From NCBI GenBank assembly GCA_965213685.1, contig CBDBZY010000016.1, forward strand, positions 462,800 to 526,799: a stretch of DNA of 64,000 bases, given 5' to 3'. Under the pieces are notes generated by a model, which saw only the letters and a list, made by a program, of their open reading frames with translations, was not told the origin of the DNA and made no database searches. The translations under genes were made by a program, and so were the position numbers. The DNA comes from a bacterium. GTDB lineage: Bacteria; UBA8248. Positions 1 to 63,002 of this stretch are shown in pieces (within the stretch, counting starts at the first letter, position 1; every line of letters starts with the position of its first letter).

Positions 1-1373
1 GGATAGTCAGTATTCCCTATGAATATGCAGTCAGTGAAAACTGGATTTGTAATGGCGCCTGTCCAATCTACTGACCGCTCTGATAAGTCCATTGCACTAC
101 CAACTCTGCCAAGGTTGTATAGCCATGAACAGTTGTAGAACAGTAATCTGTTGGTAGCCAGGCTCCTGCTTCTCTCTCTGGCTGTGTCGAAGTATACCCC
201 TCCCCCCCAGTACGCCCAGTTGTGTTGGAAAGTGCAGTTTTGAAAGAGCATGTTATTGAGGCTCATACGGGAATCGTTACTGAAATGGAACCCAAGTTTC
301 ATTCCTCCACCACCTGTAGCTTGGCCAGTTGTTGCAGTAGCGTTGTAGAGGTATGCAGTGTTGTTATATATTATACAGGAGTCCATTGTGAATGTGCTGT
401 TCCAACTCAGATGCTGGAACTCTACAAACACTCCTCCTCCCCACTCCGCCTCATTGTTCTCAAACACACACCTTTCCACTGCCACTGAGCTGTTCTCAAC
501 TTCACTGAAGAACACACTCAGGCCTCCTCCGTGACCGAATGTCAGGTGGTTCGTGTCCTGGGGCAGGAGGTAGATGTACTCCACTGGGTGCCACATGTGC
601 CCACGATTGCCCCCAAACACACACTCACTGATCCTGTACTCCACTCCTGTGCTGTACTGTGGGGGGATGGAGGTGTTGCCTGCGTCACAGTCGCTAGGGA
701 GTTGGGGGTCACAGAAGGGAAATTCGATGTATAGACCCCCTCCACTAGGAACCATTTCATTGTTGGGGGGTCTGTTATAGAGGAAACTGCAGTTGTGGAT
801 GTAGTTGAGTCCACCAGTAGCATACACGGCCATTCCTGTCCCTGTGCTGTTGGTGACACTCACTCCAGTCAGGTTGATGTGCTGACAGAACAGGAAGTAC
901 ACGCCCACAGGAAACTGCATGAAGGAGAAGCTGTGGTCACTGAAGTTACGGCTCGTGCTGTTCTGCAGAGCCCCACAGCCAGAGAAGTGCACATTCTGGA
1001 TAGTGATGCCACTGGACTGGACAAAGCTGAGGCCTGCCCCAGATTCACACGTCACTGTCACCACAGGTCGGGATAACCAATTTACAAATGGGTCAACACC
1101 AGTCAGGGCTATACTAGTTAATCCAGATAAGCTAATCATGTGGTTCAGTGAGTAGTCTCCACTACTCACCTCCACCTGAGTGGAGTTTAGCACTCGCTCA
1201 CTCACAGCATAGGAGAAGGTACGACAAGGGTGGGTGTGGCTTCCACAAGTGACATTGTCACTGGCATTGGGGTTGCTACAGTCCACATACACTGTGTGGT
1301 CATAGTGAGCAAAGGAGAGGGCACTATGCAGCACAGCTGCCACCAGCAGCCAGAACAACCTCTCAGATGTCAT
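1..1373 (-). CDS. Pmp-like beta-helix multi-pass membrane protein, paralog 1 (5' part only; runs off the window start)
   Basis: ATG at 1373 reads MTSERLFWLLVAAVLHSALSFA and is nearly identical to paralogs 2-4 down to position 1 (..GAITNPVFTDCIFIGNTDY). Not in the ORF track, consistent with its stop lying outside the window. Confidence 0.9.
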   Translation of the reverse strand, partial: MTSERLFWLLVAAVLHSALSFAHYDHTVYVDCSNPNASDNVTCGSHTHPCRTFSYAVSERVLNSTQVEVSSGDYSLNHMISLSGLTSIALTGVDPFVNWLSRPVVTVTCESGAGLSFVQSSGITIQNVHFSGCGALQNSTSRNFSDHSFSFMQFPVGVYFLFCQHINLTGVSVTNSTGTGMAVYATGGLNYIHNCSFLYNRPPNNEMVPSGGGLYIEFPFCDPQLPSDCDAGNTSIPPQYSTGVEYRISECVFGGNRGHMWHPVEYIYLLPQDTNHLTFGHGGGLSVFFSEVENSSVAVERCVFENNEAEWGGGVFVEFQHLSWNSTFTMDSCIIYNNTAYLYNATATTGQATGGGGMKLGFHFSNDSRMSLNNMLFQNCTFQHNWAYWGGGVYFDTARERSRSLATNRLLFYNCSWLYNLGRVGSAMDLSERSVDWTGAITNPVFTDCIFIGNTDY

Positions 1374-16558: not shown

Positions 16559-19500
16559 TTAACTATCACTGCTAATGGTTCCATATGTTCGGCTGGTTGA
16601 CTGTCCATAGGACTGGTTTGGTGTTGGTGGTGTTCTCTGAACCAGAGGAGGCTGGTCTGAGCTCCCTCTTGTGCTGGTCTTGGTGACACTCTGCTGTGTT
16701 GAAGAGTATGCATAGCTCTGTGAGCTACTCTGAGCTGCTTCACTTGAGTTGGTGCTGGTGGTGGAGTTAGTGTGCTTGGGTCGGTAGCGATTCCTCTCGC
16801 GGTCCCTCCCAAAAGCTTCCACGCCCTCCACAAAGAGTCGGTATTCCTCATCAGCAGATGACAAAGGAGGGGCTTCAGATGTCTCGTCATCTGTGTCTTT
16901 AGGAAGGGGCACCAGTGGTGACCTCTCAGGCACATTGGTACCCATACATCGAGACAGACATGACCTAAAAGACTGGTCGTTGTTCTTGACTATTCGGTAT
17001 ATTACATAACAGATCATGTAGAAGAGAGGACAGAAGATGAGGAGATACTGAAGTGCAAAGGCCCAACTAGTGAGTGGGATATCCATTGCAGCATAAAAGA
17101 TGTTGTACATACTGAGGACATTGATCAGTGCAAGGATTCCAAGAATTGTGGCATCAACATTATTGTAGAAGTCTTTCTTGTATGGTCTGATGACAGCAAA
17201 TAGGAGAATTCCAATTGTGCACACCAACTGCTGGACAACGTACTGCTGGAACCAGATGCCAGTATAAATGAAAGAGGTGAATATTATTGTGCGCAGAAGG
17301 AAGTAGAGCCCGGCAAAGTATCGGCAATCTCTTGTTCCGTTTGTTCCATCTTTAAAGCAACCTTGGAATGTATCGAGAAACACCTGCATACGTCCACCAG
17401 CTTGGAAAAACTGACCACAACAACCGAGCCTTCTAGTCAGACTCTCTACTAACTTCAGTGGGTAGACGAAGAGGATCAGAGGTGGGAGCAGTACGAATGT
17501 GATCATCACAAACATGGCCATTATGAAGTATGGGATGTGCTCCTTGCCAAGGTATTCTGTGCCTCCTTGATAGTAGAGATGATGACCTGTTCTTGGTCCT
17601 GTGGAGTCCTGCACAGTTGTAGGAGTGAGCAGGTAGGTAGAAACCACAGTGAACTTGGTATACGAAAGGACAAGAAATGTGGAAAAAGCATCAATGGTGG
17701 ATCTATTCAAGTTCCAGCGTCGTTGGAATGAGCCAAAAATACGATGCACTGGCTTACAGAGACAGAAGATTGGCTGTATGCCACGTTCATACAGTGACAC
17801 TGTGCAGTAGAACACCAGTATCAGAAGCAGAGGATAAACAGCAAGGACATAGTGTAGAGACAGCACTCCTAGGGTGTCTACATCAGGGCTGATGCAGAAA
17901 GGTGGCACAACGGAAGTAAAAAAGTTCAGATTCCAAATGTCGTATGGTACTTCATAGATCTTTTGCAGAGTAATGGCACTGCTAGTGACGTTTCTTATAG
18001 GGACAGTCTTATCTCCATCTATATCAAATGTTGTTGTTAGAAGTTGAGCAAAAAAGATGAAGCCATTAGCGCTGCCTCGAGTAACACTGATGTGGAAGAG
18101 GACAACAATGAAGAAGAATATAGTGATAGGGAGGATCTCTAACAGCAGGTAATAGACCCAGTGGTACAGGGCCTGCTTGTGAGTGCACTTCACACAGTCA
18201 AAGGTATTTGAGTTGATGGCAGGGGCATACCCCTTAACACACTGTCCACAAAACATGCCTTGCCTGTTGACAGGATGGCAGAGCAGTTCATCCAGCCCAG
18301 AACTTTTGTTGGGCAGCTTCACGTACTCCTCCTCCATATGCACAGCAGTGTAGGGACACATCCCCACAACAAGCTGGTCAGACGACTCGTCTATCCCCAT
18401 CCACTGCCCTCTCCTCAGTCTCACTGAGAAATCCGCCTGATTGCACCTCACCACTCCCCCATAGTTACCAGTACACACACACTGTGTGTTGTTGTGTGTG
18501 TCATTCTGAGGGGAAAATCCCGGGGGGCAGGGAAGAATTTCTACTACAATTTCAGTGTAGAGCACTCGAGGATTGATTGTTTCTATTGCTAGCAGAGCAG
18601 TTGAGTTTGGTTCTCCAGTTAGCTCAACAGTATTGTCTGAAACATAGGTATAGGCACTTGGAATCTGCGCAGTGTCTGGAGAGTGTGACCACAAGTTGAA
18701 CACAGCATGAGCAGTTTGGTTTTTCATTCTGTCACCCAAAACCTCAACAGGCATCAACTGTCTCTTCCCCAGTATGACCTCCATGTGGTAGGATGAATCA
18801 TTCCCTGTGTTACTGAAGGCAGCCGGAGCGCTAGATATATCATCTGAACAGTTACCTCCATCATATTCCCATGCACTGTTCCAACAAAACACATCCCGTC
18901 GAGGGTCGGGAACTTTCTTCTTGGACATTGGGGTATAGTATCCCCAAAAACAAGGTACAAGAGATGTGCCATATATAGCATTCCCACCATCGCTGTACAG
19001 AGCAGTATTCCCTTTAAAGTAGAAACTGGCAGTCCAGTTCCACGGCTGTAATGTAGGGTCACTGTACTGGATGAAGCACGTGCCAAAAAAGAATAACATA
19101 TGCTGCCCAACAGCATATGAGTATATGGCACCACCATACTGGCCAGCTATGTTGTCAATGAATATCATTTGTGTGTGGTCGTAAATACGAATGTAGGAGG
19201 AGCTATAGAGGGCAATGGCACCGCCAGTCCTGCCCTGGTTTCCAGTGAAGTTAGCAATGCAGTTTTCTAAAAAATGCACACCACTGTCAACAACAGCCAA
19301 AGCTGATCTGTTATTGTTTTCAAAATGAACACTGTTATTAAAATTCAGAGGAACAGTGTGTGTGTTAACTGTGCCAACACCTATTGGTTGACCAAGAGTC
19401 GACACCACACTGGGATAGTCATTGTTTCCTATGAATATGCAGTCAGTGAAAACTGGATTTGTAATGGCACCTGTCCAACCTACTGACCACTCTGATAAGT

Positions 19501-20797
19501 CCATTGCACTACCAACTCTGCCAAGGTTGTATAGCCATGAACAGTCATAGAACAGTAATCTGTTGGTAGCCAGGCTCCTGCTTCTCTCTCTGGCTGTGTC
19601 GAAGTATACCCCTCCCCCCCAGTATGCCCAGTTGTGTTGGAAAGTGCAGTTTTGAAAAAGCATGGTATTGAGGCTCATACGGGAATCGTTACTGAAATGG
19701 AACCCAAGTTTCATTCCTCCACCACCTGTAGTTTGGCCAGTTGTTGCACTAGCGTTGTAGAGGTATGCAGTGTTGTTATAAACTCTACAGGAGTCCATTA
19801 TGAACATGTTGTTCCAACTGAACTGCTGGAACTCTACAAACACTCCTCCTCCCCACTCTGCCTCATTGTTCTCAAACACACACCTTTCCACTGCCACTGA
19901 GCTGTTCTCAACTTCACTGAAGAACACACTCAGGCCTCCTCCGTGACCGAATGTCAGGTGGTTCGTGTCCTGGGGCAGGAGGTAGATGTACTCCACTGGG
20001 TGCCACATGTGCCCACGATTGCCCCCAAACACACACTCACTGATCCTGTACTCCACTCCTGTGCTGTACTGTGGGGGGATGGAGGTGGTGCCTGCGTCAC
20101 AGTCACTAGGGAGTTGGGGGTCGCAGAAGGGAAATTCGATGTATAGACCCCCTCCACTAGGAACAATTTCATTGTTGGGGGGTCTGTTATAGAGGAAACT
20201 GCAGTTTTGGATGTAGTTGAGTCCACCAGTAGCATACACAGCCATTCCTGTCCCTGTGCTGTTGGTGACACTCACTCCAGTCAGGTTGATGTGCTGACAG
20301 AACAGGAAGTACACGCCCACAGGAAACTGCATGAAGGAGAAGCTGTTGTCACTGAAGTTACGGCTCGTGCTGTTCTGCAGAGCCCCACAGCCGGAGAAGT
20401 GCACATTCTGGATAGTGATGTCACTGGACTGGACAAAGCTGAGGCCTGCCCCAGATTCACATGTCACTGTTACCACAGGTTGGGATGACCCATTTACAAA
20501 TGGGTCGACACCAGTCAGGGCTATATTGGTAAGTCCAGACAAGCTGATCATGTGGTTCAGTGAGTAGTCTCCACTGCTGACCACCACCTGAGTAAAGTTC
20601 AGCACTCGCTCACTCACTGCATAAGAGAAGGTACAGCAAGGGTGGGTGTGGCTTCCACAAGTGACATCATCAGTGGCATTGGGGTTGCTACAGTCCACAT
20701 ACACTGTGTGGTCATAGGCCAATGCCAGAGACAGAAGCAATGGAGTTAGAAATATTGTGGCCACCCAAAAAGTGTGCACTGTTTGTACTGCTGCCAT
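16559..20797 (-). CDS. Pmp-like beta-helix multi-pass membrane protein, paralog 4 (distinct signal peptide)
   Basis: First ATG at 20797 (MAAVQTVHTFWVATIFLTPLLLSLALA), just downstream of a splice acceptor (tttgctactgcag). The mature region is nearly identical to paralogs 1-3. Confidence 0.9.
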   Translation of the reverse strand: MAAVQTVHTFWVATIFLTPLLLSLALAYDHTVYVDCSNPNATDDVTCGSHTHPCCTFSYAVSERVLNFTQVVVSSGDYSLNHMISLSGLTNIALTGVDPFVNGSSQPVVTVTCESGAGLSFVQSSDITIQNVHFSGCGALQNSTSRNFSDNSFSFMQFPVGVYFLFCQHINLTGVSVTNSTGTGMAVYATGGLNYIQNCSFLYNRPPNNEIVPSGGGLYIEFPFCDPQLPSDCDAGTTSIPPQYSTGVEYRISECVFGGNRGHMWHPVEYIYLLPQDTNHLTFGHGGGLSVFFSEVENSSVAVERCVFENNEAEWGGGVFVEFQQFSWNNMFIMDSCRVYNNTAYLYNASATTGQTTGGGGMKLGFHFSNDSRMSLNTMLFQNCTFQHNWAYWGGGVYFDTARERSRSLATNRLLFYDCSWLYNLGRVGSAMDLSEWSVGWTGAITNPVFTDCIFIGNNDYPSVVSTLGQPIGVGTVNTHTVPLNFNNSVHFENNNRSALAVVDSGVHFLENCIANFTGNQGRTGGAIALYSSSYIRIYDHTQMIFIDNIAGQYGGAIYSYAVGQHMLFFFGTCFIQYSDPTLQPWNWTASFYFKGNTALYSDGGNAIYGTSLVPCFWGYYTPMSKKKVPDPRRDVFCWNSAWEYDGGNCSDDISSAPAAFSNTGNDSSYHMEVILGKRQLMPVEVLGDRMKNQTAHAVFNLWSHSPDTAQIPSAYTYVSDNTVELTGEPNSTALLAIETINPRVLYTEIVVEILPCPPGFSPQNDTHNNTQCVCTGNYGGVVRCNQADFSVRLRRGQWMGIDESSDQLVVGMCPYTAVHMEEEYVKLPNKSSGLDELLCHPVNRQGMFCGQCVKGYAPAINSNTFDCVKCTHKQALYHWVYYLLLEILPITIFFFIVVLFHISVTRGSANGFIFFAQLLTTTFDIDGDKTVPIRNVTSSAITLQKIYEVPYDIWNLNFFTSVVPPFCISPDVDTLGVLSLHYVLAVYPLLLILVFYCTVSLYERGIQPIFCLCKPVHRIFGSFQRRWNLNRSTIDAFSTFLVLSYTKFTVVSTYLLTPTTVQDSTGPRTGHHLYYQGGTEYLGKEHIPYFIMAMFVMITFVLLPPLILFVYPLKLVESLTRRLGCCGQFFQAGGRMQVFLDTFQGCFKDGTNGTRDCRYFAGLYFLLRTIIFTSFIYTGIWFQQYVVQQLVCTIGILLFAVIRPYKKDFYNNVDATILGILALINVLSMYNIFYAAMDIPLTSWAFALQYLLIFCPLFYMICYVIYRIVKNNDQSFRSCLSRCMGTNVPERSPLVPLPKDTDDETSEAPPLSSADEEYRLFVEGVEAFGRDRERNRYRPKHTNSTTSTNSSEAAQSSSQSYAYSSTQQSVTKTSTRGSSDQPPLVQRTPPTPNQSYGQSTSRTYGTISSDS

Positions 20798-22151
20798 CAA
20801 GCGCTTCCTGCAGTAGCAAACAAGAGATGATATCTTCACGCAACACCCTACTGGCCATACAAACTACAAGTACATGTACATTGTGTCCTGTGAGTAGCGC
20901 ATGCATCCTGTGAGTACGGCGGCGGCATAGACTTAATACCTCAGTAGGCTCCTGGTTGTAGATACTTTGACACGCACTAACTCAACTGACAGCAACGCAG
21001 CGGTCTCTCGGTGACAGAGCAGACAGGAATGGGCTTGTAGGTCCGTGCGGTGCCGTATTTCAGTAGAGTGTAGCCGGCTGCTTGCGCTGTACTAGACTCT
21101 ACTCGTTTATCATGAACTGAAAGTAGCCTATCACCTACCGTCTGACTCCCGGAAAGAGCAGGGGAGATGTAGCTAGCTACACTGCCGGTGCCAGCTGCTC
21201 GCCCACGCGCCCACCACAAGACACACCGCTATAGCGCGCTATGTACACAGGATACGTCATACACAGTTTTACACTGTGTAGATCTAGCTAACGTACGCGG
21301 AAAATTTTGGCGCCCCAAACATAAACAGAAACTAGTTCCGCGAAGAGTACCGTGCTGCGGGTGTTGTTTCGGTTTCATTTTACGACACGAAGCTCAGGCA
21401 AGGCTGTAGGTGCCTGCCCGTGTAATACCCAGGCCGTACCTGGATACTAGAGCCTGGACAATGGTTACGTGCCTCTAATATTCATGGCCAAGACTAGCTC
21501 CAGTTTACACAGTAAAAGGTCACTTCGTAATACGTCATGAGGCAGGCAGGTAGTATAGTAGTGTTACTTCCGGACGTCACGGTAAGTCCCCCTGCACCGG
21601 TCGAAAGGGTAAAGTTCACTACTAGAACTCTGGATGTATAAACCACATCAGCACTTGAAGAGGGCCAGAGTTTGCACGGCGAAGGAACGCGAACGAGTCG
21701 AGATTGCGTGTTGTACCAATTCAAGGTAAATGTTTAGCAACTTGGAAGTCCGCAGCTTAGCATCTCTGTGTATATAGTCACAGTGTAGTTTGTACGTGCA
21801 GATATTTTATTCATGACATGCACAATAACCGCTTCCTCTCACGACTGAAACTCAGGACCTTGCCGGACTTAGTGAATAATTTTCAGGCTGCGTTCAGTGC
21901 AGTGTACGTGTGTCGGTGTCTGCACGTGACGTGGAAAAGAACCATTTCTACGCACGACAGGTGAGCTCAACTGAGACATTCATCACACAGAGCAAAGCAC
22001 GCACCTTCAGGTACATGTGGTCCACAGTGTTGAGTGCGCATTCAGCTATGGCAACAATACTACTATAGCTCAATACATACATACAGTACCAAGTGTATTG
22101 AGTGTCAGCTCTTCTCTCGTTTGTTATCCTGCTAGGTTAAGGAGCAGGGCC

Positions 22152-25100
22152 ATGACGTCTGAGAGGTTGTTCTGGCTCTTGTTGGCGATTATGCTGCATA
22201 GTGCCCTCTCCTTTGCTCACTATGAACACACAGTGTATGTGGACTATAGCAATCCCAATGCCACTGATGATGCCACTTGTGGAAGCCACACCCACCCTTG
22301 TTGTACCTTCTCCTATGCTGTGAGTGAGCGAGTGCTGAACTCCACTCAGGTGGTGGTCAGCAGTGGAAACTACTTACTGAACCACACGATCAGCTTGTCT
22401 GGACTTACCAATATAGCCCTGACTGGTGTCGACCCATTTGTAAATGGGTCATCCCAACCTGTGGTGATAGTGACCTGTGAATCAGGGGCAGGCCTCAGCT
22501 TTGTCCACTCCAGTGACATCACTATCCAGAATGTGCACTTCTCTGGCTGTGGGGCTCTGCAGAACAGCACGAGCCGTAACTTCAGCGACCACAGCTTCTC
22601 CTTCATGCAGTTTCCTGTGGGCGTGTACTTCCTGTTCTGTCAGCACATCAACCTGACTGGAGTGAGTGTCACCAACAGCACAGGGACAGGAATGGCCGTG
22701 TATGCTACTGGTGGACTCAACTACATCCACAACTGCAGTTTCCTCTATAACAGACCCCCCAACAATGAAATGGTTCCTAGTGGAGGGGGTCTATACATCG
22801 AATTTCCCTTCTGCGACCCCCAACTCCTTAGTGACTGTGACGCAGGCAACACCTCCATCCCCCCACAGTACAGCACAGGAGTGGAGTACAGGATCAGTGA
22901 GTGTGTGTTTGGGGGCAATCGTGGGCACATGTGGCACCCAGTGGAGTACATCTACCTCCTGCCCCAGGACACGAACCACCTGACATTCGGTCACGGAGGA
23001 GGCCTGAGTGTGTTCTTCAGTGAAGTTGAGAACAGCTCAGTGGCAGTGGAAAGGTGTGTGTTTGAGAACAATGAGGCAGAGTGGGGAGGAGGAGTGTTTG
23101 TGGATTTTCAGGAGCTGAGCAGAAGCAACCATTTCTCAATATCTTCCTCAGTCATCCGAAACAACACCTCTTTCTTCAAGAAGGAGAGCTATTCCACGCA
23201 GACCACAGGAGGTGGTGGTATGAGATTGGAGTACATGTTCACCGATGACTCAGAAATGGAGAACAACAGTATAGTGGTCGATAGCTGCCTGTTCCAACAC
23301 AACAGAGCATACTGGGGAGGCGGGGTGTCCTTCAGCACTGCCCGTGAGAGAAGGCACAGCACGGCCTCAAACTCCCTCACATTTTGTAACTGTACTTGGG
23401 ACTCAAACTATGGGAGGACTGGCAGTGCCATTGACCTCTCCATTTGGAACAAGGCGTCAGAAGGAGCCACCGTGACTCCTGTATTCAGCGACTGTGCCTT
23501 CGTCAACAATAACGACAACAATACTAATTATAGTAACGTTATTGGTGACATCATTGGAGTGGGTACTTTGTATACAAGTTGCGTGTCAATCATATTCGAG
23601 CACTCTGTTGTTTTCGAGGACAACAACTCCTCCGCTCTGGCATCTGTTGATGCTTCGCTCGATTTCATGGACCACTGTGATGCAATTTTCTACAGGAACA
23701 GTGGCAGAAGTGGTGGTGCCATATCTCTATTTGGGTCGGCCTATATCAAAGTGCACAACTACACGAACATGCAGTTTATTAACAACTCTGCATCACAGTA
23801 TGGAGGGGCCATCCACTGCTACGCCATTGATCAACACACACTTGCCATGTTTGGCAATTGCTTCATCCAGTATCAAGATATCCTCACTGAGCCATGGAAC
23901 TGGACAGCTAGGTTCTTCTTCAAAGGAAACACGGCCACCTACAACGGAGGAAGGAACTCAATCTCGGCCGTGTCTCTGTACCCCTGTCTCTGGGACTACT
24001 ATAGCATGCAGCCTTCAACGCAAGTCCCCAGTCCATCCCAGCAGCTGTTCTGCTGGAATGAGAACTGGGTGTACGACGAAGGCTCCTGCGAGGACGAGAT
24101 ATCCAGTGCACCAGCTGCTTTCAACACCTCAAAGAACGGCTCGAGACACATGGAGCTCATTCTGGGGAGGCCCCAGGCAATGCCAGTGGAGGTTCTTGAC
24201 GATAAGGGAGTCAATGTGAGTGAGCGTGTCGTATACACTGCACGCTCCCTGACCCCTGACCTTGCCCAAGTGCCTAATAACTCATTCTACATATCTGATA
24301 GTGCTTTGAATTTGGTGGGGATTCCCAACAGCACAGCTGCTATTCAGCTCGAGACTCTTGGCCCCCGGGTGCTGACCTGGGAGCTAGACGTCACTGTCCT
24401 CCCCTGTCCCCCAGGGTTTGCCCCCCAGACTTCTGAAAATTCCTCCCTGGCCAAGTGTGTGTGTGATGAGAGTTATGGAGGGAGAGTGAAGTGTAACGAG
24501 GCTTCCTTTACTGCCAAGTTGCAACGAGGGCATTGGATGGGAGTGGACTCTAGTTTGGAAGGGGATCTCTCTAAGCAGCTTCTGGTTGGTATGAGTCCTT
24601 ACACAGCTAGTGCTATGGACTCACAGTATGTTGAGCTGCCAAACAAGACGGCGGATCTCGACGGACAGTTGTGTGAGCCAGTGGGGAGGGAGGGGATTAT
24701 GTGTGGTCGCTGTCGCCAAGGTTACGGTCTGGCTGTGAACACTAAACAAATCCAGTGTGTGCGATGCTCGGACAGCCAAGCCCACTACATGTGGGTCTTT
24801 TACATCCTCTCCCAATTACTGCCCATCACAATAATGTTCCTGATATTTGTCCTACTTCACGTCAGCACCACCACTGGCCCTGCCAATGCCTTCATTTTAT
24901 TTGCACAGCTCTTGACAACCACTTTCAGCATTGAAGGAGACGAAACAGTCCACATAGACAGCGTCACCTCACACTACGATGCGCTGCAAAAAGCCTACAC
25001 CATTCCCTACGATATCTGGAACCTCAATTTCTTCTTCTTCCCGCCCACCTGCCTCAGCCCCCACCTCAGCACTCAAGCATTCTTATCGCTAGACTTCCTC

Positions 25101-26471
25101 GTGGCGGCCTATCCTCTCATTCTCATTGCCCTCTTCTATGGTGTGGTCTCTCTCTATGATCGAGGTATCCAACCTGTTTACTGCCTGTGTCGTCCCCTGC
25201 ATAACCTGTTTGCCCGGTTTCAACACCAGTGGAACCTCCAACACTCAACCATTGACGCCTTTGCGACATTTCTTGTTCTCTCCTACAATAAGTTCACCGT
25301 GACCTCTGTGTACCTCCTGACCTCTGACCCCTTGGTGGACAGCTTGGACAAAACAGTGACCAATGTGTTGTACCTTGATGGCAATGTCCATTTCCTTAGC
25401 AACGAACACCTTCCCTACTTCTTCCTAGCTCTCTGCATTCTTCTGACCATAGTGACACTGCCTCCTCTCCTCCTCCTCGTCTACCCACTCAGACTGATTC
25501 AGAGGTTGTCAAACTGGTTTGGCTGCAAGAAAACCTGTTGTAAGATCAACACTGGCGGCCGAATGCAGATGTTCCTCGACACATTCCAAGGCTGCTTCAA
25601 GGACGGCACCAATGGGACAAGAGACTACAGATACTTTGCTGGTGTCTACTTCATCCTTCGCATCCTCTTCTTCACACTCTATGCCTACACAGGTATGTGG
25701 ATACGGCAGTACTTCATACAGCAGCTGTTCTGCACAGTGGCTGTGCTTCTCTTCGCAGTGTTCAGACCTTACAAAAAGGACTTCTACAATAACCTCGATG
25801 CGACCATATTTGGTGTGTTAGCCCTCATTAACGCTGTGAGTATGTACAACATATACTTCACATCGCTGGATCAGCCTGCGTCCAAATGGGCTTTTGCCAT
25901 ACAATATATCCTGATATTCTGTCCTCTGGTGTACATGGTGGTATATGTCATGTGGGCAGTGATCAAGAACAATCGGCAGAAGCTGAAGAAATTTTTCCGT
26001 TTTGGATCCGTTGATGAGAATACTACGCTTCTCTCTAGTCACCATGACGACGGCAGTTTGGATGCTGAGTTTCTGGCATTTGCAGCTGTTATGGATGATC
26101 AGTCACACCAGGTTATTCACATCACACCACCAAGGGGGCGTAACACAGGGAGAAATTCTGGTCCCCAGGGGGCCGGCTTGGATCTGTCCACTAGCCCAAC
26201 TTCGTCTCGTGGCACTTCTGGTGTCATTCGTATCCATGACTACAGCTACGAGAGGAATGAGGGAGGGAGGAGGTCAGAGGGCGAGCACAGGACTGACCAC
26301 CTCACAGAGGGAGAGGGACAGGGCAGTGGAAGGGAAGAAGAGAGGGGAGAGAGAGGTGGGACGGAGGGCAGAGGAGGGAGGGGGGACAGTGAGGTCGGTC
26401 CATCAAGAGATGGCCACCATCAACACAGGGACAGGCAGGACATAGATGAAGACCACATCCATGACAACTAA
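22152..26471 (+). CDS. Pmp-like beta-helix multi-pass membrane protein, paralog 5
   Basis: ATG at 22152 (gccATGa) after the acceptor ttatcctgctag. Same architecture, with a divergent mid-ectodomain and a Gly/Arg/Glu-rich tail. Confidence 0.92.
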   Translation: MTSERLFWLLLAIMLHSALSFAHYEHTVYVDYSNPNATDDATCGSHTHPCCTFSYAVSERVLNSTQVVVSSGNYLLNHTISLSGLTNIALTGVDPFVNGSSQPVVIVTCESGAGLSFVHSSDITIQNVHFSGCGALQNSTSRNFSDHSFSFMQFPVGVYFLFCQHINLTGVSVTNSTGTGMAVYATGGLNYIHNCSFLYNRPPNNEMVPSGGGLYIEFPFCDPQLLSDCDAGNTSIPPQYSTGVEYRISECVFGGNRGHMWHPVEYIYLLPQDTNHLTFGHGGGLSVFFSEVENSSVAVERCVFENNEAEWGGGVFVDFQELSRSNHFSISSSVIRNNTSFFKKESYSTQTTGGGGMRLEYMFTDDSEMENNSIVVDSCLFQHNRAYWGGGVSFSTARERRHSTASNSLTFCNCTWDSNYGRTGSAIDLSIWNKASEGATVTPVFSDCAFVNNNDNNTNYSNVIGDIIGVGTLYTSCVSIIFEHSVVFEDNNSSALASVDASLDFMDHCDAIFYRNSGRSGGAISLFGSAYIKVHNYTNMQFINNSASQYGGAIHCYAIDQHTLAMFGNCFIQYQDILTEPWNWTARFFFKGNTATYNGGRNSISAVSLYPCLWDYYSMQPSTQVPSPSQQLFCWNENWVYDEGSCEDEISSAPAAFNTSKNGSRHMELILGRPQAMPVEVLDDKGVNVSERVVYTARSLTPDLAQVPNNSFYISDSALNLVGIPNSTAAIQLETLGPRVLTWELDVTVLPCPPGFAPQTSENSSLAKCVCDESYGGRVKCNEASFTAKLQRGHWMGVDSSLEGDLSKQLLVGMSPYTASAMDSQYVELPNKTADLDGQLCEPVGREGIMCGRCRQGYGLAVNTKQIQCVRCSDSQAHYMWVFYILSQLLPITIMFLIFVLLHVSTTTGPANAFILFAQLLTTTFSIEGDETVHIDSVTSHYDALQKAYTIPYDIWNLNFFFFPPTCLSPHLSTQAFLSLDFLVAAYPLILIALFYGVVSLYDRGIQPVYCLCRPLHNLFARFQHQWNLQHSTIDAFATFLVLSYNKFTVTSVYLLTSDPLVDSLDKTVTNVLYLDGNVHFLSNEHLPYFFLALCILLTIVTLPPLLLLVYPLRLIQRLSNWFGCKKTCCKINTGGRMQMFLDTFQGCFKDGTNGTRDYRYFAGVYFILRILFFTLYAYTGMWIRQYFIQQLFCTVAVLLFAVFRPYKKDFYNNLDATIFGVLALINAVSMYNIYFTSLDQPASKWAFAIQYILIFCPLVYMVVYVMWAVIKNNRQKLKKFFRFGSVDENTTLLSSHHDDGSLDAEFLAFAAVMDDQSHQVIHITPPRGRNTGRNSGPQGAGLDLSTSPTSSRGTSGVIRIHDYSYERNEGGRRSEGEHRTDHLTEGEGQGSGREEERGERGGTEGRGGRGDSEVGPSRDGHHQHRDRQDIDEDHIHDN

Positions 26472-26628
26472 CAAGCTACTACATCTAGCATGATAGCATG
26501 GAATGACTCCACTACTGCAGAGTACTACTCTGTACCACATGTATAGTGCTCTATTTGAAGGTATTTTCATTTTACTTTATGTATACAGTGGTATTGTAGC
26601 TATGGCCAATGTATATACTGTGTGTGAA

Positions 26629-26845
26629 TTTATATGGCAGTACAAAGTGAAAATTCAGTGATAATTAATATAGTAGTGATGAGCATGCACAGTATGGTAG
26701 TGGGTGTGGTCACAGTATGGCAGTGGGTGTGGTCACATATTCTCCTGATGATGGTGTTCTGCAGTTTGACAATTAACGTTCTTGGCTTGCAGTAGGAGGG
26801 GTAGGTCCAATGGTGTGACTGCTGCAGACAATGCATCCTAGGGAG
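26629..26845 (-). pseudogene. Degenerate duplicate of the CLYBL last exon and 3' UTR
   Basis: Minus strand reads DLPLLLQAKN after a cctag acceptor, versus DLPLLLQAEN in the CLYBL last exon. It shares TGCAGTTTGACAAT, GGGTGTGGTCA and TATGGCAGTACAAA with 33951-34118 and carries indels. Confidence 0.7.
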
Positions 26846-26996
26846 GGGAAGTGAGGGGAGGTGCTTAGAGAGGGTACATACTATTCCCAGTACATGGCAA
26901 CCAGATTTGTAGCCCAGGGAGCCATTAAGATGAAAGTTTAAGCTTATGAAATGTGAGCAGCTAACAGTTGTGCACGGCTTACATCATAGTTATAGT

Positions 26997-28315
26997 CGCT
27001 GATGCTGCAAGGTATATATACCGCTAATGTGCAGTCCGTGCAGTGCGGGGGAACAACCGCGTAAGGTCGGCTAACATTACGGGAAATTTATGCACGTTGT
27101 GGGCACGAGTAGCGGCCGCTGATGCTGCACGGTATATAGAGTAAGTTATCGATGATCGGACGCCATCTATTTTCGGACGCATTTGCGAAGTCTGTGTGTA
27201 ATTAAAGTAGTTAATTTTTGCGACAAAATGTAGTCCTGAGTCACAAACCTTTGTAGAAAAAAAATCGTTTTTATCAAAGCTTCAAGGCCTGAATTATGTG
27301 GCGATAAATGACCGTCCGAAAGTAATGCATTAGCAGACAAAAGTATCATTCTTCGGACGCCTCTTCCAAAAACTACGTAATGTAGGGGATTCTATCGAAA
27401 GTATGCTTCATACATAATGTTATCCTTTGGCTATCCAGCGAACTATAGTTTGGCTACTTTCGTCTTCATTGCTTCCCACGTCATCGCTGTAAACATGTCA
27501 AAGTCACGTAATCAATATTCGGACACAAAAAATGGATTTTGCCTTATTCCGCCTGAGACACGTAAGTAATTCTGATTCCAAAATTTTTACACATGCTGCT
27601 GGTGCTTTTACAAGAAAACTACACCACTATTTTTTGCTTTTGCAAGATTTGAAGTTTTTAGGTAATTAAATACTAAATTATTTTTTAAAAGACCAAAAAT
27701 CAAAATCAGGTATAATCAAAAAAGGTGGTGTAGGTATTCTGTACACGACCAGTAGCACCTGAAGAAAGTATTGAAAGCAGACGTTCTCGCTTGCCTTAGG
27801 TGCAAGAGAGCAAAAACCGTTCATCGTGTCCGAACATTGATTAGGTGACTTTGGTATGTTTGACGGGGATGGCGTGTGAAGCACTTAAGATGAAAATGAA
27901 CAAACTATAGTTCGCTGGATAGCCAAAGGATAACACTGTGTATGAATCATACTTTCGATAGAATCCCCTGAATTATGTAGTTTTTGGAAGAGTCGTCCGA
28001 AGAATGATACTTTTGTCCGTTAATGCATTACTTTCAGACTGTCATTTATCGCCACATAATTCAGGCCTTGAGGCTCTGATAAAGGCGAATTTTTTTCTAC
28101 AAAGGTTTGTGACTCAGGACTACATTTTGTCGCAAAAAGTAACTAGTTTAGTAACACACAGACTTCGCAAATGCGTCCGAAAATAGATGGCGTCCGATCA
28201 TCGGTAACTTACTCTATACCGCTAATGTGCAATCCGTGCACTACCGGGGAACGGCGTAAGGTCGGCTTATATTACGGGAAATTAATTCACGTTGTGGGCG
28301 CGGGTAGCGGATATA
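26997..28315. repeat. About 118-bp tandem repeat interrupted by element C
   Basis: TATACCGCTAATGTGCA..GTAAGGTCGGCT..ATTACGGGAAATT..CACGTTGTGGGC..GTAGCGG occurs at about 27017-27115 and again at 28215-28311. Confidence 0.75.
27139..28214. mobile_element. Non-autonomous DNA transposon C (about 320-bp TIRs, GAG..CTC termini, TATA TSD)
   Basis: GAGTAAGTTATCGATGATCGGACGCCATC... mirrors ...GATGGCGTCCGATCATCGGTAACTTACTC. Mirror ORFs 27167..27349(-) and 28004..28186(+) reflect the TIRs. TATA at 27135-27138 and 28215-28218. Confidence 0.88.
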
Positions 28316-29152
28316 TTACGCGCAGTGCTTTCACTTACGGCTTCCTGGAAGGCTCGTCGGCTACCCTTGCTAGCCACACTATTAGCTCTGCCTGGAGTGT
28401 GGAGCAGCTCTGCTCCATGATGTCTCTGAACTTTCACGAAAAAACCCCATAAAAAACAAGCCAGAGGTGTTATACTGCTTCCGCCCGTGGAACGCATCAG
28501 TTATATAAGATAGATATAAGTTCTGTCCAGGTTTACATCCAGGTTTACATCATAGTTTACGCTATCTATAGGGATCTGACTATCACAACCATTCCGGAAA
28601 CGTTTATTGTCCCAGCGTAAACGCGGTGAGACACACAGTCTGATACGGTACTGAAATTTGGACCAGCGCTTCCTCGAAAGAGCACAATGTGTTGAGATTG
28701 CGTGCTAGCTGTACCAATCCCAGGTAAGTGGCGCGTTGTAGTTTCAACGTCGCTGCGTATATATATAAGCTTACCACACGCTCAGTTTTGTATGATTGTG
28801 CAGATACATTGGTGACGGACTGAAATTTTATAGGTCTCAACTGGACTTGGTGAGTAGCTAGTTTACAAGGTGCAGTGCGTGCGTTCGTGTCTGCACGCTG
28901 CGTGATACTTCTTCACACTGCAGGTGAGTTCAGTTCAGGTATAAGTAGCACTGTTTGTGTATATCCATTGCCTGTATTTGGTCGCCCTTTGTATGTGCTT
29001 CTATTGTCTATTTGTACGCAAGCAGGTATAAGTAGCACACACCACGCAGAGCAAAGCATGTAATAGGGACCACTTTATATGGCGACATTAACAAATTGTT
29101 GGTGCATTGTGTGTCAGCGTTTCTCTTGTTTGTTATTCTGCTAGACAAAGCC

Positions 29153-32100
29153 ATGGCATCTGAGAGGTTGTTCTGGCTGCTGGTGGCAGCTGTGCTGCAT
29201 AGTGCCCTCTCCTTTGCTCACTATGACCACACAGTGTATGTGGACTGTAGCAACACCAATGCCACTGACAATGCCACTTGTGGAAGCCACACCCACCCTT
29301 GTCGTACCTTCTCCTATGCTGTGAGTGAGCGAGTGCTGAACTCCACTCAGGTGGTGGTCAGCAGTGGAGACTACTCACTGAACCACACAATCAGCTTGTC
29401 TGGACTTACCAATATAGCCCTGACTGGTGTTGACCCATTTGTAAATGGGTCATCCCAAGCTGTGGTGACAGTGACATGTGAATCTGGGGCAGGCCTCAGC
29501 TTTGTCCAGTCCAGTGGCATCACTATCCAGAATGTGCACTTCTGTGGCTGTGGGGCTCTGCAGAATAGCACGAGCCGTAACTTCAGTGACCACAGCTTCT
29601 CCTTCATGCAGTTTCCTGTGGGCGTGTACTTCCTGTTCTGTCAGCACATCAACCTGACTGGAGTGAGTGTCACCAACAGCACAGGGACAGGAATGGCTGT
29701 GTATGCTACTGGTGGACTCAACTACATCCACAACTGCACTTTCCTAGAAAATAAGCCATCAAGGTTTGGTGGGGGAGGTCTCTATGTCGAGTTTCCCTAC
29801 TGTTCACCCACAAATCAAACGGGTTGTACCACTATCCAGGATAATGAATATAACTCTAATGCATCCTACACTATATCCGAATCATTGTTCAGTGGGAACG
29901 TTGCACTAGAACCAGAGGCAAGCATTCATGAAAGCCAGTACAATTTTCTGCCCCTTGACCCCCACTATCACAACACTGCAGGGCATGGTGGTGGTATAGC
30001 ACTGTACCTGTGCAGGGCAAATGACATCGTTATATCACTCACTGAGTGTAAGATAGAGCATAACAAGGCCTACTTTGGTGGCGGTATTGTAGTAAGTTTT
30101 GAGGAGTACAGTGTAGATACTAGAGTGAATATAGTCAGCAGCACTATCAGTGACAACCACTGTGTATACCGCAGTGCCTTTGGTGGCTCTGGTGGAGGAA
30201 TGATGGTACTTTTCAAGTTCTCCTACCAAGCAAGCCACACACACAACAGTATGTCTGTGAGCCACTCTCACTTTACCAAAAACACAGCATATTTTGGAGG
30301 GGGATCTGTCGTCAAAGCATCTCCCGAGATGGAACAGACTGACCCGACAAACAGTGTGTACTTCAATGAGTGTGTCTGGAGTGGGAATTATGGGACAGTG
30401 GGAGCTGCTCTGTTAGCCTCAGCCTACAACATATCTGCCAAAAGAGGTGCCCTATTGAAACCTGTTTTTGAGAGCTGCACTTTTGAGAACAATACTGGGG
30501 ACATCCCTGGCATTGTTACAGCAGATTATCTTCCAATTGCATTCAGTACTAATGTTAAGTTTTTTCATAATGGAAACAGTTCTCAGGCTTCTTCCCCCCT
30601 CACTATTGACCAAACCAGTGTAGATTTCTTAGAGAACTGCCAGGCTACCTTCCATCACAACAAGGCAGCGTATGGCGGTGCCATATCACTTCATGGACAT
30701 GCCTTCATGACAGTGCATAGAAATACTTCTCTGACCTTCTCACACAACTACGCACAGCGAGCAGGTGGAGCAATTTACCAGAATCCTACCAGCACTGGAC
30801 TCCTGAGTAATGGACACTGTTTCGTGCAGTATATGGATGGTTCTGTACATCCCAAAGACTGGGAAACCAACTTTGTATTTGATTTTAATCGAGAAAATGT
30901 TCATACTTCTGACCCTGAGTGCAATGCAATGGTACTGGGCTCACTGATTCCATGCATTTGGAATGGCTACACATACAGTCGATCTCAGAATGAGACGGTC
31001 TTGAGCAAAGTGTTCTGCAAGGATCGCAACAACTGGACTTTTCGGTCAAACTCTACCAATTGTGGCTGTAGCAATCAGACACGAACCTTACCTAACAGGA
31101 TCATGGCAAATATTTCATTGAATGTAATTCCTGGACTTCGCAGTCCTCTCAACATAACACTGCTCGATGACTACAGCAAAAATGTGACAAAATATGCAGT
31201 ACTGAATGTGTGGCCTGCCACTAACAGTTCCATAAGCTTACCTCCAAACTCCTTTTATATAACCGATAATTCTCTAGTAATGTATGGTGAAAGCATGAAT
31301 AATGGAACATTGGATGTTGACACTCTGCCTCCTCGCCATCTCTTTGCCTCTGTTCCTGTTCATTTCCAGCAGTGCCCACCTGGCTTTGTGCAGACCAATA
31401 AGGATGGACACAGACCGACCTACTCCAGTGTAGACCTCTCCCAGAATGTGCGCGAGCTGGCCAAGTGTGTGTGTGATGAGAGTTATGGAGGGAGGGTGAA
31501 GTGTAGTGAGGCTGCCTTTACTGCCAAGTTGCAACGAGGGCTCTGGATGGGAGTGGACCCTAGTTTGGGAGGGGATCTCTCTAAGCAGCTTCTGGTTTGT
31601 ATAAGTCCTTACACAGCTAGTGCTATGGACTCACAGTATGTTGAGCTGCCAAACAATACGGCGGATCTCGACAAGCTGCTATGTCAGCCAGTAGGGAGGG
31701 AGGGGATTATGTGTGGTCGCTGTCGCCAAGGTTATGGTCTGGCTGTGAACACTAAACAAATCCAGTGTGTGCGATGCTCGGACAACCAAGCTTACTACAT
31801 GTGGGTCTTTTATATCCTCTCCCAATTACTGCCCATCACAATAATGTTCCTGATATTCGTCCTACTTAATGTCAGCACCACCACTGGCCCAGCTAATGCC
31901 TTCATTTTATTTGCACAGCTCTTGACAACAGCATTAGACATTGAAGGTGATGGAACAGTCCACGTGGACAGCATCACCTCACACTACGATGCGCTGGAAC
32001 AAGCCTACATCATTCCCTATGATATCTGGAACCTCAACTTCTTCTTCTTCCCACCCACCTGCCTCAGCCCCTACCTCAGCACTCAAGCATTCTTATCGCT

Positions 32101-33472
32101 AGACTTCCTCGTGGCAGCCTATCCTCTCATTCTCATTTTCCTCTTCTATGGTGTGGTCTCTCTCTATAATCGAGGTATCCAGCCAGTCTACTGCCTGTGT
32201 CGTCCCGTGCATAACCTGTTTGCCCGGTTTCAACACAAGTGGAACCTCCAACACTCAACCATTGACGCCTTTGCGACGTTTCTTGTTCTTTCATACAACA
32301 AATTCACGGCGACCTCTGTGTACCTCCTGACCCCTGAGCCCTTGGTGGACAGCTCTGGCAATGGGGTGACCAATGTATTGTATCTTGATGGCAATGTCCA
32401 TTTCCTTAGCAATGAACACCTTCCCTACTTCTTCCTAGCTCTGTGCATTCTGCTGACCATAGTGATACTGCCTCCTCTCCTCCTCCTCGTCTATCCACTC
32501 AGACTGATTCAGAGGTTGTCAAACTGGTTTGGTTGCAGAAGAGCTTGTTGTCAGATCAACACTGGCGGCCGAATGCAGATGTTCCTCGACACATTCCAAG
32601 GCTGCTTCAAGGATGGCACCAATGGGACAAGAGACTACAGATACTTTGCTGGTGTCTACTTCATCCTCCGAATCCTCTTCTTCACACTCTATGCCTACTC
32701 AAATACTTGGATACAACAGTTTTTTGTACAGCAGCTGCTCTGCACGGCGGCTGTGCTCCTCTTCGCAGTTTTCAGACCATACAAAAAGGACTTCTATAAT
32801 AACCTCGATGCGACCATATTTGGTGTGTTGGCCCTCATTAATGCTGTGAGTATGTACAATATATGCTTCACCTCACTAGATCAGCCGTTGTCCAAGTGGG
32901 CATTTGCCATGCAATACATTTTGATATTCCTTCCTCTGATGTACATGGTGGCCTATGTCATGCGGGCTGTGGTGAGGAATAACAAGCAGAAGCTGAAGAA
33001 GTGTTTTAAAAAGGTTTTCCGTTTCAGTTCTACTGATGAAAACACTCCTATCCTCACTAATCAGCGTGATGAAGGAACTTTGGATGCTGAATTTCTGGCA
33101 TTTGCAGCTGCTATAGACGATCAGTCTCACCAGGTTATCTGTGTCACACCACCAAGGGGGCACAACACGGGGAGAAATTCTGGTCCCCAGGGGGCTGGTT
33201 TGGATGTGTCTACTAGCACAACTTCATCTCATGGCACTACTAGTAGTACTGATCTCTATTGTGAGAGAGGTGAGGGAGGAAGGAGACCAGAGAGTGAGCA
33301 CAAGACAGACAACCTCAGGGAGGGAGAAGAGCAGAGCATTGGAAGAGGAGGGGACAGCGGAAAGAGAGGAGGGAATAGGGGTCATGAGGCGCGGAAGGAT
33401 GGTGAGCTCTCTCCATCAGGAAGTGGCCATAATCAAAACAAAGATGGCAAAAGCACTGATGAAGATCCATGA
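29153..33472 (+). CDS. Pmp-like beta-helix multi-pass membrane protein, paralog 6
   Basis: ATG at 29153 (MASERLFWLL) after the acceptor ttattctgctag. It has the most divergent central ectodomain, and its TM region is close to paralog 5. Confidence 0.92.
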   Translation: MASERLFWLLVAAVLHSALSFAHYDHTVYVDCSNTNATDNATCGSHTHPCRTFSYAVSERVLNSTQVVVSSGDYSLNHTISLSGLTNIALTGVDPFVNGSSQAVVTVTCESGAGLSFVQSSGITIQNVHFCGCGALQNSTSRNFSDHSFSFMQFPVGVYFLFCQHINLTGVSVTNSTGTGMAVYATGGLNYIHNCTFLENKPSRFGGGGLYVEFPYCSPTNQTGCTTIQDNEYNSNASYTISESLFSGNVALEPEASIHESQYNFLPLDPHYHNTAGHGGGIALYLCRANDIVISLTECKIEHNKAYFGGGIVVSFEEYSVDTRVNIVSSTISDNHCVYRSAFGGSGGGMMVLFKFSYQASHTHNSMSVSHSHFTKNTAYFGGGSVVKASPEMEQTDPTNSVYFNECVWSGNYGTVGAALLASAYNISAKRGALLKPVFESCTFENNTGDIPGIVTADYLPIAFSTNVKFFHNGNSSQASSPLTIDQTSVDFLENCQATFHHNKAAYGGAISLHGHAFMTVHRNTSLTFSHNYAQRAGGAIYQNPTSTGLLSNGHCFVQYMDGSVHPKDWETNFVFDFNRENVHTSDPECNAMVLGSLIPCIWNGYTYSRSQNETVLSKVFCKDRNNWTFRSNSTNCGCSNQTRTLPNRIMANISLNVIPGLRSPLNITLLDDYSKNVTKYAVLNVWPATNSSISLPPNSFYITDNSLVMYGESMNNGTLDVDTLPPRHLFASVPVHFQQCPPGFVQTNKDGHRPTYSSVDLSQNVRELAKCVCDESYGGRVKCSEAAFTAKLQRGLWMGVDPSLGGDLSKQLLVCISPYTASAMDSQYVELPNNTADLDKLLCQPVGREGIMCGRCRQGYGLAVNTKQIQCVRCSDNQAYYMWVFYILSQLLPITIMFLIFVLLNVSTTTGPANAFILFAQLLTTALDIEGDGTVHVDSITSHYDALEQAYIIPYDIWNLNFFFFPPTCLSPYLSTQAFLSLDFLVAAYPLILIFLFYGVVSLYNRGIQPVYCLCRPVHNLFARFQHKWNLQHSTIDAFATFLVLSYNKFTATSVYLLTPEPLVDSSGNGVTNVLYLDGNVHFLSNEHLPYFFLALCILLTIVILPPLLLLVYPLRLIQRLSNWFGCRRACCQINTGGRMQMFLDTFQGCFKDGTNGTRDYRYFAGVYFILRILFFTLYAYSNTWIQQFFVQQLLCTAAVLLFAVFRPYKKDFYNNLDATIFGVLALINAVSMYNICFTSLDQPLSKWAFAMQYILIFLPLMYMVAYVMRAVVRNNKQKLKKCFKKVFRFSSTDENTPILTNQRDEGTLDAEFLAFAAAIDDQSHQVICVTPPRGHNTGRNSGPQGAGLDVSTSTTSSHGTTSSTDLYCERGEGGRRPESEHKTDNLREGEEQSIGRGGDSGKRGGNRGHEARKDGELSPSGSGHNQNKDGKSTDEDP

Positions 33473-34018: not shown

Positions 34019-37593
<3,575 letters not shown>

Positions 37594-37599
37594 AATTGG

Positions 37600-47099: not shown

Positions 47100-63002
<15,903 letters not shown>

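Follow-up and report, generated by a model that had tools for sequence, protein, structure and literature searches.

The window analysed here is a stretch of 64,000 nucleotides (G000:C16:462800-526799, where G000 denotes the genome bin and C16 the contig label; positions refer to the window unless prefixed), which was binned as bacterial and is sponge-like eukaryotic host DNA. Its left half is occupied by six long open reading frames (ORFs) of one family, p1 to p6, and a seventh member, p0, lies outside the window on the same contig. The seven genes are combinatorial mosaics of swapped modules. Our reading, to which we assign a probability of about 0.78, is that this sponge cluster encodes receptor-like glycoproteins, and that its mosaics arose through two layers of recombination: rare joins between diverged paralogs, and a frequent gene conversion by which the distal tip of the proteins is kept in step.

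The additional member p0 was found by a tblastn search of the bin, which also returned the full-length p1 and five distant copies on another contig, C64. All seven ORFs are intact: they encode 1359-1439 amino acids each, and each has its own copy of an N-terminal cassette. Only the N-terminal 457 codons of p1 fall within the window. The genes are the following:

G000:C16:449008-453087, plus strand: p0, ~9.7 kb upstream of the first base of the window; shared head, beta body, delta membrane domain
1..1373 (full coding sequence G000:C16:460087-464172, 1361 amino acids), minus strand: p1, running off the window; alpha body, p0-type (delta) tail
5984..10198, minus strand: p2, alpha type, 1404 amino acids; in a tandem array with p3 and p4
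11268..15494, minus strand: p3, alpha type, 1408 amino acids; stalk/membrane part locally divergent from p2 and p4
16559..20797, minus strand: p4, alpha type, 1412 amino acids; own signal peptide, head-to-head with p5
22152-26471, plus strand: p5, whole gene
29153-33472, plus strand: p6, whole gene

When whole units are compared by blastn, p2, p3 and p4 prove to be tandem duplicates of 5.29 kb, ~93-95% identical with spacers included. In p4, which features a signal peptide of its own, homology to the other cassettes begins only past codon column ~31.

A codon alignment of the seven genes resolves them into modules, whose types are indicated by the labels alpha, beta, gamma and delta, coined in this analysis:

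signal peptide, columns 0-31: three types (p0; p1, p2, p3, p5 and p6; p4)
head, module A, columns 31-207: one type, in all seven genes
B1, columns 208-337: alpha in p1-p5; beta in p0 and p6
B2, columns 338-815: alpha in p1-p4; gamma in p5; beta in p0 and p6
stalk and membrane, module C, columns 816-1340: alpha in p1-p4; gamma in p5 and p6; delta in p0
tail, columns 1341 to the end: alpha in p2-p4; gamma in p5 and p6; delta in p0 and p1

A single type of head is combined with membrane modules of three types and with tails of three types, and the bodies belong to three lineages. Synonymous divergence (dS) of the modules ranges from 0.00 to 0.25 within types, and is saturated between types. Segment-wise trees, proposed as a check in an initial annotation made from the sequence alone, conflict at 95-100% bootstrap: p0 and p6 are grouped in both B1 and B2 (100), p5 and p6 in C (100), p0 and p1 in the tail (95). 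The tail of p1 shows a dS of 0.25 against p0, and saturation against p2-p4. Within the alpha type, the bodies of p2-p4 are mosaics of each other, p3 included: in the pairwise homoplasy index (PHI) test, the value observed for the alpha bodies was reached by none of 5000 permutations, and dS jumps locally.

The initial annotation had described a constant-variable-constant mosaic in p5 and p6. Breaks were placed by codon-aligned sliding identity, blastn of whole units and junction displays, and all the coordinates originally given turned out to be correct within 1-3 nucleotides. For p5, near-identity to p1-p4 had been reported up to about 23102: identity is 96-97% up to 23101 (nucleotide ~950 of the coding sequence, in the EWGGGVFV motif) and ~59% beyond, with 27-37 differences over 879-882 nucleotides (codon columns 31-337) versus 1160-1169 over the following 2844. 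For p6, near-identity had been limited to the segment ending at about 29744: identity is 95.6-96.1% over nucleotides 1-593 of the coding sequence (29153-29745), ending in YIHNCTFL, and falls to 0.37-0.59 (~45% overall) past 29745. The two genes, as noticed, become alike again, from 24447 in p5 and 31457 in p6 (coding nucleotides 2296 and 2305, at LAKCVCD...), with ~91% identity over the membrane module. The parts of the two genes are reported below:

22152..23101, plus strand: p5 cassette (modules A and B1); signal peptide, N-cap, first beta-helix rungs
23102..24446, plus strand: p5 gamma central beta-helix and beta-sandwich; sole copy in the cluster, 0.56 nucleotide identity to alpha, dS saturated
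24447..26471, plus strand: p5 gamma part with Cys-rich stalk, multi-pass membrane domain and a tail rich in Arg, Gly and Glu; common to p5 and p6, dS 0.24 (tail 0.71)
29153..29745, plus strand: p6 cassette (module A only), itself a patchwork
29746..31411, plus strand: p6 beta central module, common to p0 only
31412..31456, plus strand: p6 filler RPTYSSVDLSQNVRE, 45 nucleotides, in frame, at the beta-to-gamma junction
31457..33472, plus strand: p6 gamma stalk, membrane domain and tail

A single-breakpoint maximum chi-square test was applied to 12 pairs: in all 12 the observed value, well beyond chance, was reached by none of 2000 permutations. Synonymous divergence is far from uniform along the genes. 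NG86 dS stays within 0.00-0.16 over the cassette and becomes saturated or undefined beyond its limits in the comparisons of p5 with the alpha genes, of p6 with all but p0, and of p0 with all but p6. The mosaic described for p5 and p6 is therefore there, and it is also wider, since it includes p0, outside the window, p1, with the tail of p0, and the alpha copies.

The likeness of the constant parts had been ascribed to homogenisation, by gene conversion, of the N-cap and of the transmembrane module, around a central beta-helix that stays diverse. For the N-terminal cassette this interpretation is supported: comparison of the sequences indicates that it evolves in concert via non-reciprocal exchange, rather than being kept alike by constraint. 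Among all seven copies, cassette dS is 0.02-0.16, as compared to ~0.2-0.25 in bodies of the same type, and the cassette is younger than the bodies because its dS is lower. Between p0 and p6, dS rises from 0.056 in A to 0.105 in B1 and to 0.21 in B2; between p5 and p6, it rises from 0.087 in A to 0.24 in C. In the same way, differences in the cassette (A and B1) amount to 1.6-4.5% among p1-p5, versus 6.6-10% between alpha bodies. The closest pair in B1 is formed by the head-to-head genes p4 and p5, with a dS of 0.000 over 106 codons. The cassette is common to both orientations (p1-p4 on the minus strand; p0, p5 and p6 on the plus strand), the arrangement that points to non-crossover exchange.

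Signs of exchange are also found inside the cassette. The cassette of p6 resembles p2 in columns 31-59, and p4, p5 and p0 in columns 62-100. For the whole set, 137 of the 351 pairs of informative sites are incompatible, and 35 of 5000 permutations gave a PHI value at or below the observed one. Constraint does not explain the likeness of the cassettes, because the ratio of nonsynonymous to synonymous divergence (dN/dS) is higher in A (~0.3-1.2) than in the bodies (~0.23-0.25). Base composition changes at the edge: G+C content at third codon positions (GC3) is 0.60-0.63 in the cassette and drops to 0.43-0.52 in alpha and beta genes (in p6, 0.44-0.45 in the beta central module versus 0.60 in the cassette), while p5 stays at 0.60-0.62 throughout.

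The remaining parts of the original interpretation did not find support in the form given. In the membrane module, the dS of p5 and p6 is close to that of the beta bodies of p0 and p6, indicating equal age: their likeness looks like descent from one chimera-forming event, to judge from these distances, and not like recent homogenisation. The central beta-helix, rather than having diversified in place, falls into three old lineages, alpha, beta and gamma, each with relatives in other sponges.

Two of the module junctions carry scars, in p0 and in p6. At the head/body junction of p0, NCSFLYNRPPNN is followed by NCSFLENTPSRF, a join out of register by 36 nucleotides (a staggered duplication): the alpha-type sequence overshoots by 36 nucleotides, then the beta-type sequence restarts at the homologous NCSFL. 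Public sequencing runs, indicated as X1, X2, X5 and X7, were consulted as Logan short-read contigs and unitigs; their word shares are larger than those of X11-X20, no run is listed as RNA, and results concern the 32 pieces listed (654 further pieces lie outside this scope). A contig from X1 reproduces the p0 join exactly, with a joint 22764->29730 when placed on p5 and p6. In p6, homology to p0 ends at 31411 and homology to p5 starts at 31457: the in-frame filler in between is found in none of the six remaining paralogs, nor in the 6 relatives displayed for this site, and no second copy of 20 nucleotides or more was found in the bin. In p1, the switch from alpha to the tail of p0 sits at a short TG(C/T)-TGT microhomology. 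Such features, as read from the sequence, point to illegitimate or microhomology-mediated joining rather than to exchange between homologous stretches.

Relatives from other assemblies were compared segment by segment. In orthologue-like proteins, identity is 47-77% in the head versus 60-88% in the rest. The beta-type relatives P0121-P0124 and P0060 are 44-56% identical to p0/p6 in the beta body and 48-58% in the delta membrane module, and only 43-47% identical to the cassette in the head. Because bodies and membrane modules of these relatives match and their heads do so less, the build of p0, a beta body with a delta membrane domain, is taken as native, and the head of p0 and p6 as replaced. 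For the gamma centre of p5, the closest relative is P0002, from another assembly (70% amino acid identity). This gamma-like protein and the alpha-like P0011 share 80-90% identity over residues ~37-318 and 31-64% after, and they break at the same WGGGVFV motif as p5 does against alpha. At the protein level, heads are 84-100% identical in p5/p2 and 80-90% in P0002/P0011, a putative paralog pair, compared with 47-77% in P0002/p5 and 44-77% in P0011/p2: paralogs would here be closer than orthologue-like proteins. These identities have the appearance of a head evolving in concert in each of two lineages, within an edge conserved between them. P0019 and P0007, also from other assemblies, are 84-100% identical in the N-terminal ~350 residues, 54-71% at ~470-640, then 79-95%, a profile which suggests module exchange elsewhere in the family.

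Related loci were also searched for: none was found in genome contigs, and none in metagenome contigs with p5 as the query. With an alignment, A2, 13 distant loci were identified in metagenome contigs, of which only one, L011, contains two complete tandem genes. Another of these loci, L012, contains the end of one gene and the start of the next.

In the mechanism proposed here, the first and rare layer would consist of illegitimate or microhomology-mediated joins between diverged paralogs, generating in-frame chimeras. p0 would be an alpha/gamma-type head set on a native beta body with a delta membrane domain; p6, a p0-like head and beta body joined to a p5-type gamma membrane module; p1, an alpha gene provided with the tail of p0. 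A single joining event would fit p6, because its beta half (dS 0.21 to p0) and its gamma half (0.24 to p5) match in age. The second layer, frequent and ongoing, would be a homology-dependent, non-crossover gene conversion, acting on all copies in both orientations and keeping the cassettes near-identical. Sharp edges would persist because conversion tracts stop where identity collapses to 45-60%. The alpha/gamma edge falls on a conserved GGG rung motif, the most conserved rung, and it appears to have been kept between lineages.

Other explanations may be considered for the same data. A single ancient domain shuffling, with no later conversion and with a head kept by very strong purifying selection, synonymous sites included, would agree with the old look of the alpha/gamma edge, where P0002 and P0011 break at the same motif; chimera-forming events, moreover, did happen, as the scars indicate. 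It is nonetheless very unlikely, in view of a cassette dS below that of same-type bodies duplicated later, with a higher dN/dS in the cassette, of orthologue-like heads less conserved than the other parts, of the incompatible sites in the cassette, and of the L011 pair, where no conserved head is present. Reciprocal unequal crossing-over alone, building and homogenising the array without non-crossover conversion, would find a classic substrate in the tandem units of p2-p4, and could have given p6 as a crossover product. This too is a poor candidate, with little probability left to it: the cassette is common to opposite orientations, where a crossover would invert and not homogenise, and the exchanged patches are short (tens to hundreds of nucleotides), with other patterns on both flanks.

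A recently spread mobile or duplicated segment, such as a transposon-captured 5' exon or a segmental duplication, is a still more improbable source of the cassette. The cassette does start near an intron acceptor and has a GC3 of its own, and a high-copy repeat lies between p5 and p6. Homology limits, however, vary at both ends: on the 5' side they coincide with the ATG or with positions about -42 to -72 in p1-p3, p5 and p6, whereas in p0 and p4, each of which has a signal peptide of its own, they lie past that peptide; on the 3' side they fall at nucleotide 593, 629 or 950. No flanking repeat termini or target duplications are found, the copies keep both the reading frame and the register of homologous rungs, and all of the 7 strong cassette matches in the bin are within the cluster. 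Least credible of all is an assembly artefact, by which near-identical repeats, collapsed or mis-joined, would have produced false chimeras. Such an error could be feared for a repeat-rich cluster on a mis-binned contig, in the absence, among the pieces listed, of a public contig spanning a whole gene. The initial annotation itself had named this possibility, and at the p5 junction it was answered: independent short-read contigs from X1 and X2 cover 22850-24476 with 0 mismatches and bridge 23101, with flanks of 251 and 1375 nucleotides. At this point X5 and X7, runs from two other studies with other organism codes, each pass from a unitig that stops at 23101 to one that begins at 23072, a branching expected at the end of a tract common to paralogs. 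A 3086-nucleotide record from X7 joins a beta body to p0-type sequence, of the membrane type of p0. The p0 junction recurs in X1, the seven ORFs are intact, and the same mosaic is found in proteins of other assemblies.

Some observations weigh against the two-layer interpretation, or limit its reach. No piece among those listed bridges the p6 junctions, at 29745 and at 31412-31457, and X1 and X2 may be the source sample of the window assembly. NG86 dS is noisy in 60-codon windows. For p1-p5 alone, the PHI test of the cassette (A and B1) is not significant (643 of 5000). The GC3 of the cassette fits a gamma-type donor or GC-biased conversion alike, and gives no donor direction. The two-lineage argument rests on amino acid identity, since P0002 and P0011 are available as proteins only, and it holds if the two share a genome. 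In the tandem pair of L011, on a contig from another sponge metagenome, 23 windows were scored and none of them is homogenised: divergence is uniformly saturated and no head is shared, so that the pair serves as a negative control. Because it lacks such a segment, homogenisation of the head is not general to the family. As for the proteins, their function is inferred from the fold, and the membrane domain matches no PDB fold or Pfam family (best E 0.49 for Foldseek against PDB; Pfam scanned to E<=10).

Each of the p0-p6 proteins is predicted to begin with a signal peptide, followed by a right-handed beta-helix of ~600 amino acids and by a beta-sandwich; a Cys-rich stalk then leads to ~8-9 membrane helices and to a cytoplasmic tail that varies. 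The rungs of the helix are, by their motifs, of the PMP-type GGx/FxxN kind. Pfam Chlam_PMP is found in 3 of the 3 scanned proteins, in one stretch each, with 25.5-33.2 bits against a cut-off of 20.6; Beta_helix in one of them, p2, with 34 bits against a cut-off of 25.9. The AlphaFold2 model of p5 residues 1-800 is nearly all beta, with a predicted local distance difference test score (pLDDT) of 86.2. With this ectodomain model, Foldseek returned 31 matches in PDB (E<=1e-3), and the ones listed all belong to right-handed beta-helix proteins: lyases, glycosidases, tailspikes and one adhesin. Their TM-scores are low (0.13-0.27). The model of residues 750-1290 (pLDDT 87.6; predicted TM-score 0.87) features a small Cys-rich beta stalk followed by ~8-9 long helices. 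For the membrane domain, compared with 7TM (GPCR-like) and other known membrane folds, the best match in the wide VIA-align search is a designed helical protein (Z 8.1); in the Atlas, protist clusters were obtained as leads only, with the TRP family PF06011 on 12% of the members. The predicted fold makes a glycan-binding surface receptor or adhesin the most likely role. The immune or adhesin role evoked in the initial annotation is an analogy only.

The phenomenon is of a known kind, found here in an undescribed sponge family: in the literature, subscription journals being outside the coverage, no paper on a sponge PMP-repeat/beta-helix multi-pass family was found. The family is large and uncharacterised, with at least 143 relatives. 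Pmps are bacterial autotransporters. For the chlamydial Pmp, two reports describe a multigene surface family with a beta-helical passenger made of GGA(I/L/V)/FxxN-like rungs (PMC11166332, PMC10715098). The sponge proteins, as predicted, share with it this type of rung, Chlam_PMP matches above cut-off and the organisation as a multigene surface family. An identification as Pmp autotransporters was rejected: the C-terminal 540 amino acids are predicted to form alpha-helical membrane segments and not an outer-membrane beta-barrel, and the genes feature a signal peptide and a GT..AG intron in the 5' untranslated region (5'UTR), on a eukaryote-like contig.

Closer counterparts are found among vertebrate receptors. 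In paired leukocyte receptors (KLRC/NKG2, Siglec-11/16, CD300A/C), ligand-binding domains are reported to be homogenised by gene conversion (PMC3210942, PMC5701461, PMC12447643). Likeness to the sponge cluster includes neighbouring genes with a near-identical extracellular distal part, sharp conversion edges and differing membrane or cytoplasmic parts, together with a shared part that evolves fast between species. Paired receptors, however, are Ig or lectin proteins with a single-pass anchor, arranged in pairs, whereas the sponge cluster encodes beta-helix, multi-pass proteins in seven genes of three body types; for their ligand, signalling motif and opposing function, no counterpart is known in the sponge cluster. 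Innate receptors in tandem, TLR1/TLR6 and the CEACAM family among them, are likewise reported to have their divergence limited by gene conversion (PMC2077338, PMC7042247). In these, concerted evolution is restricted to a region of a tandem cluster, and paralogs are closer than orthologues in one segment, as in the sponge genes. Unlike those receptors, the sponge genes are far more diverged in the non-converted parts, where dS is saturated, and their junctions carry non-homologous scars.

A 'constant plus variable' look over a tandem cluster is likewise displayed by the protocadherin and UGT1 loci. There, one shared set of constant exons is spliced to variable exons, and region-restricted conversion is reported for the variable exons of protocadherins. 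In the sponge cluster, in contrast, every gene is one uninterrupted ORF and has the cassette physically built into it. An explanation by shared exons and splicing was considered and rejected, since each gene has its own full ORF and the only joints seen are 5'UTR introns.

In vertebrates, clusters of immune receptors that evolve fast are typically marked by conversion restricted to the ligand-facing part, by which the paralogs are kept in step; this locus is apparently an instance in a sponge. Chimera formation, with its scars, and a later, homology-limited conversion would be seen together in one locus, a candidate for self, non-self or microbe recognition in sponges, whose mapped module boundaries may be used for domain swaps. 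That the cluster is a sponge counterpart of paired receptors, that is, a germline combinatorial recognition set in which a fast-evolving, glycan-binding beta-helix tip is shared, through gene conversion, across body, membrane and tail types, is a speculative extension by analogy, rather doubtful as it stands. If it were true, one ligand (a surface glycan of a symbiont, of a food bacterium or of an allogeneic cell) would be read through several modules for signalling or trafficking, selection would preserve the conserved edge of conversion, and the genes would represent an undescribed, Porifera-wide class of receptors with a membrane fold not yet in PDB.

The nature of the source DNA was evaluated on the whole bin. 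G000 is a mixture: ~3 Mb consist of bacterial contigs with ~65% GC and an ORF coverage of 0.9-1.0 (ORFs of at least 200 amino acids), while ~5 Mb consist of eukaryote-like contigs with 42-54% GC and an ORF coverage of 0.1-0.4. The latter include C64 (1.6 Mb), C18, C41, C16, C51, C7, C2, C56 and others. The completeness and contamination values of the bin, 94.19 and 3.68, do not expose the mixture. The Atlas clusters closest to the family are from Porifera, and the one source-given name among the 143 relatives is 'uncharacterized protein [Dysidea avara]'. The window thus originates from a eukaryote, probably a sponge. A prokaryotic reading of the ORFs was discarded, as the contig is eukaryote-like both for the split of the bin by GC and ORF coverage and for the split Rpc34 gene reported below. 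In practical terms, a 'bacterial' genome bin holds ~5 Mb of host DNA.

Upstream of the coding sequences, the following introns are indicated by joints in X7, with canonical donors, pyrimidine tracts and acceptors in the sequence:

21961..22135, plus strand: p5 5'UTR intron, 175 nucleotides, GT..AG; joint 21958->22134, cut +2, in one X7 contig; acceptor 16 nucleotides before the ATG
28924..29144, plus strand: p6 5'UTR intron, 221 nucleotides, GT..AG; joint 28921->29143, cut +2, in X7; acceptor 8 nucleotides before the ATG

The conserved acceptor context (CCTGCTAG or TCTGCTAG) is present upstream of p1-p3 as well. Each gene appears to have its coding sequence in a single exon, with an intron and a further exon ahead of it in the 5'UTR; the library type of X7 is unrecorded, and splicing is taken as a hint. 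The cassette homology of p5 with p1-p3 and p6 starts inside the 3' end of the intron (about -42 to -72).

Other features of the locus, and the genes adjoining it, are reported below:

26921..28588, no strand assigned: repeat of high copy number in the p5-p6 interval; its inverted arms (359 nucleotides, 91% complementary) occupy 27135-27493 and 27860-28218
50068-50700 and 51649-52227, plus strand: Rpc34 exon-like ORFs, successive parts of the RNA polymerase III subunit (E 6.6e-17 and 7.4e-8)
36982-37605, minus strand: weak match to HpcH/HpaI aldolase/citrate-lyase (25.4 bits against a cut-off of 25)

For the repeat, the summed contig word-depth is ~3-80 times that of neighbouring bins in X1, X2 and X5, with almost none in X7; it is probably a transposon remnant, and lies outside the genes. 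The Rpc34 and HpcH/HpaI ORFs represent split eukaryotic genes adjoining the receptor cluster. The cassettes of p4 and p5 form an inverted repeat of 921 nucleotides (19797-20717 and 22220-23140), 96% complementary and separated by 1502 nucleotides: this is a potential substrate for inversion, and the same pair also features the most recent exchange, in B1. Finally, the five distant family matches on G000:C64, located at 103892-105127, 236216-237631, 671472-675299, 813019-814554 and 819213-820370, are 27-29% identical to p5, and one of them is near full length.

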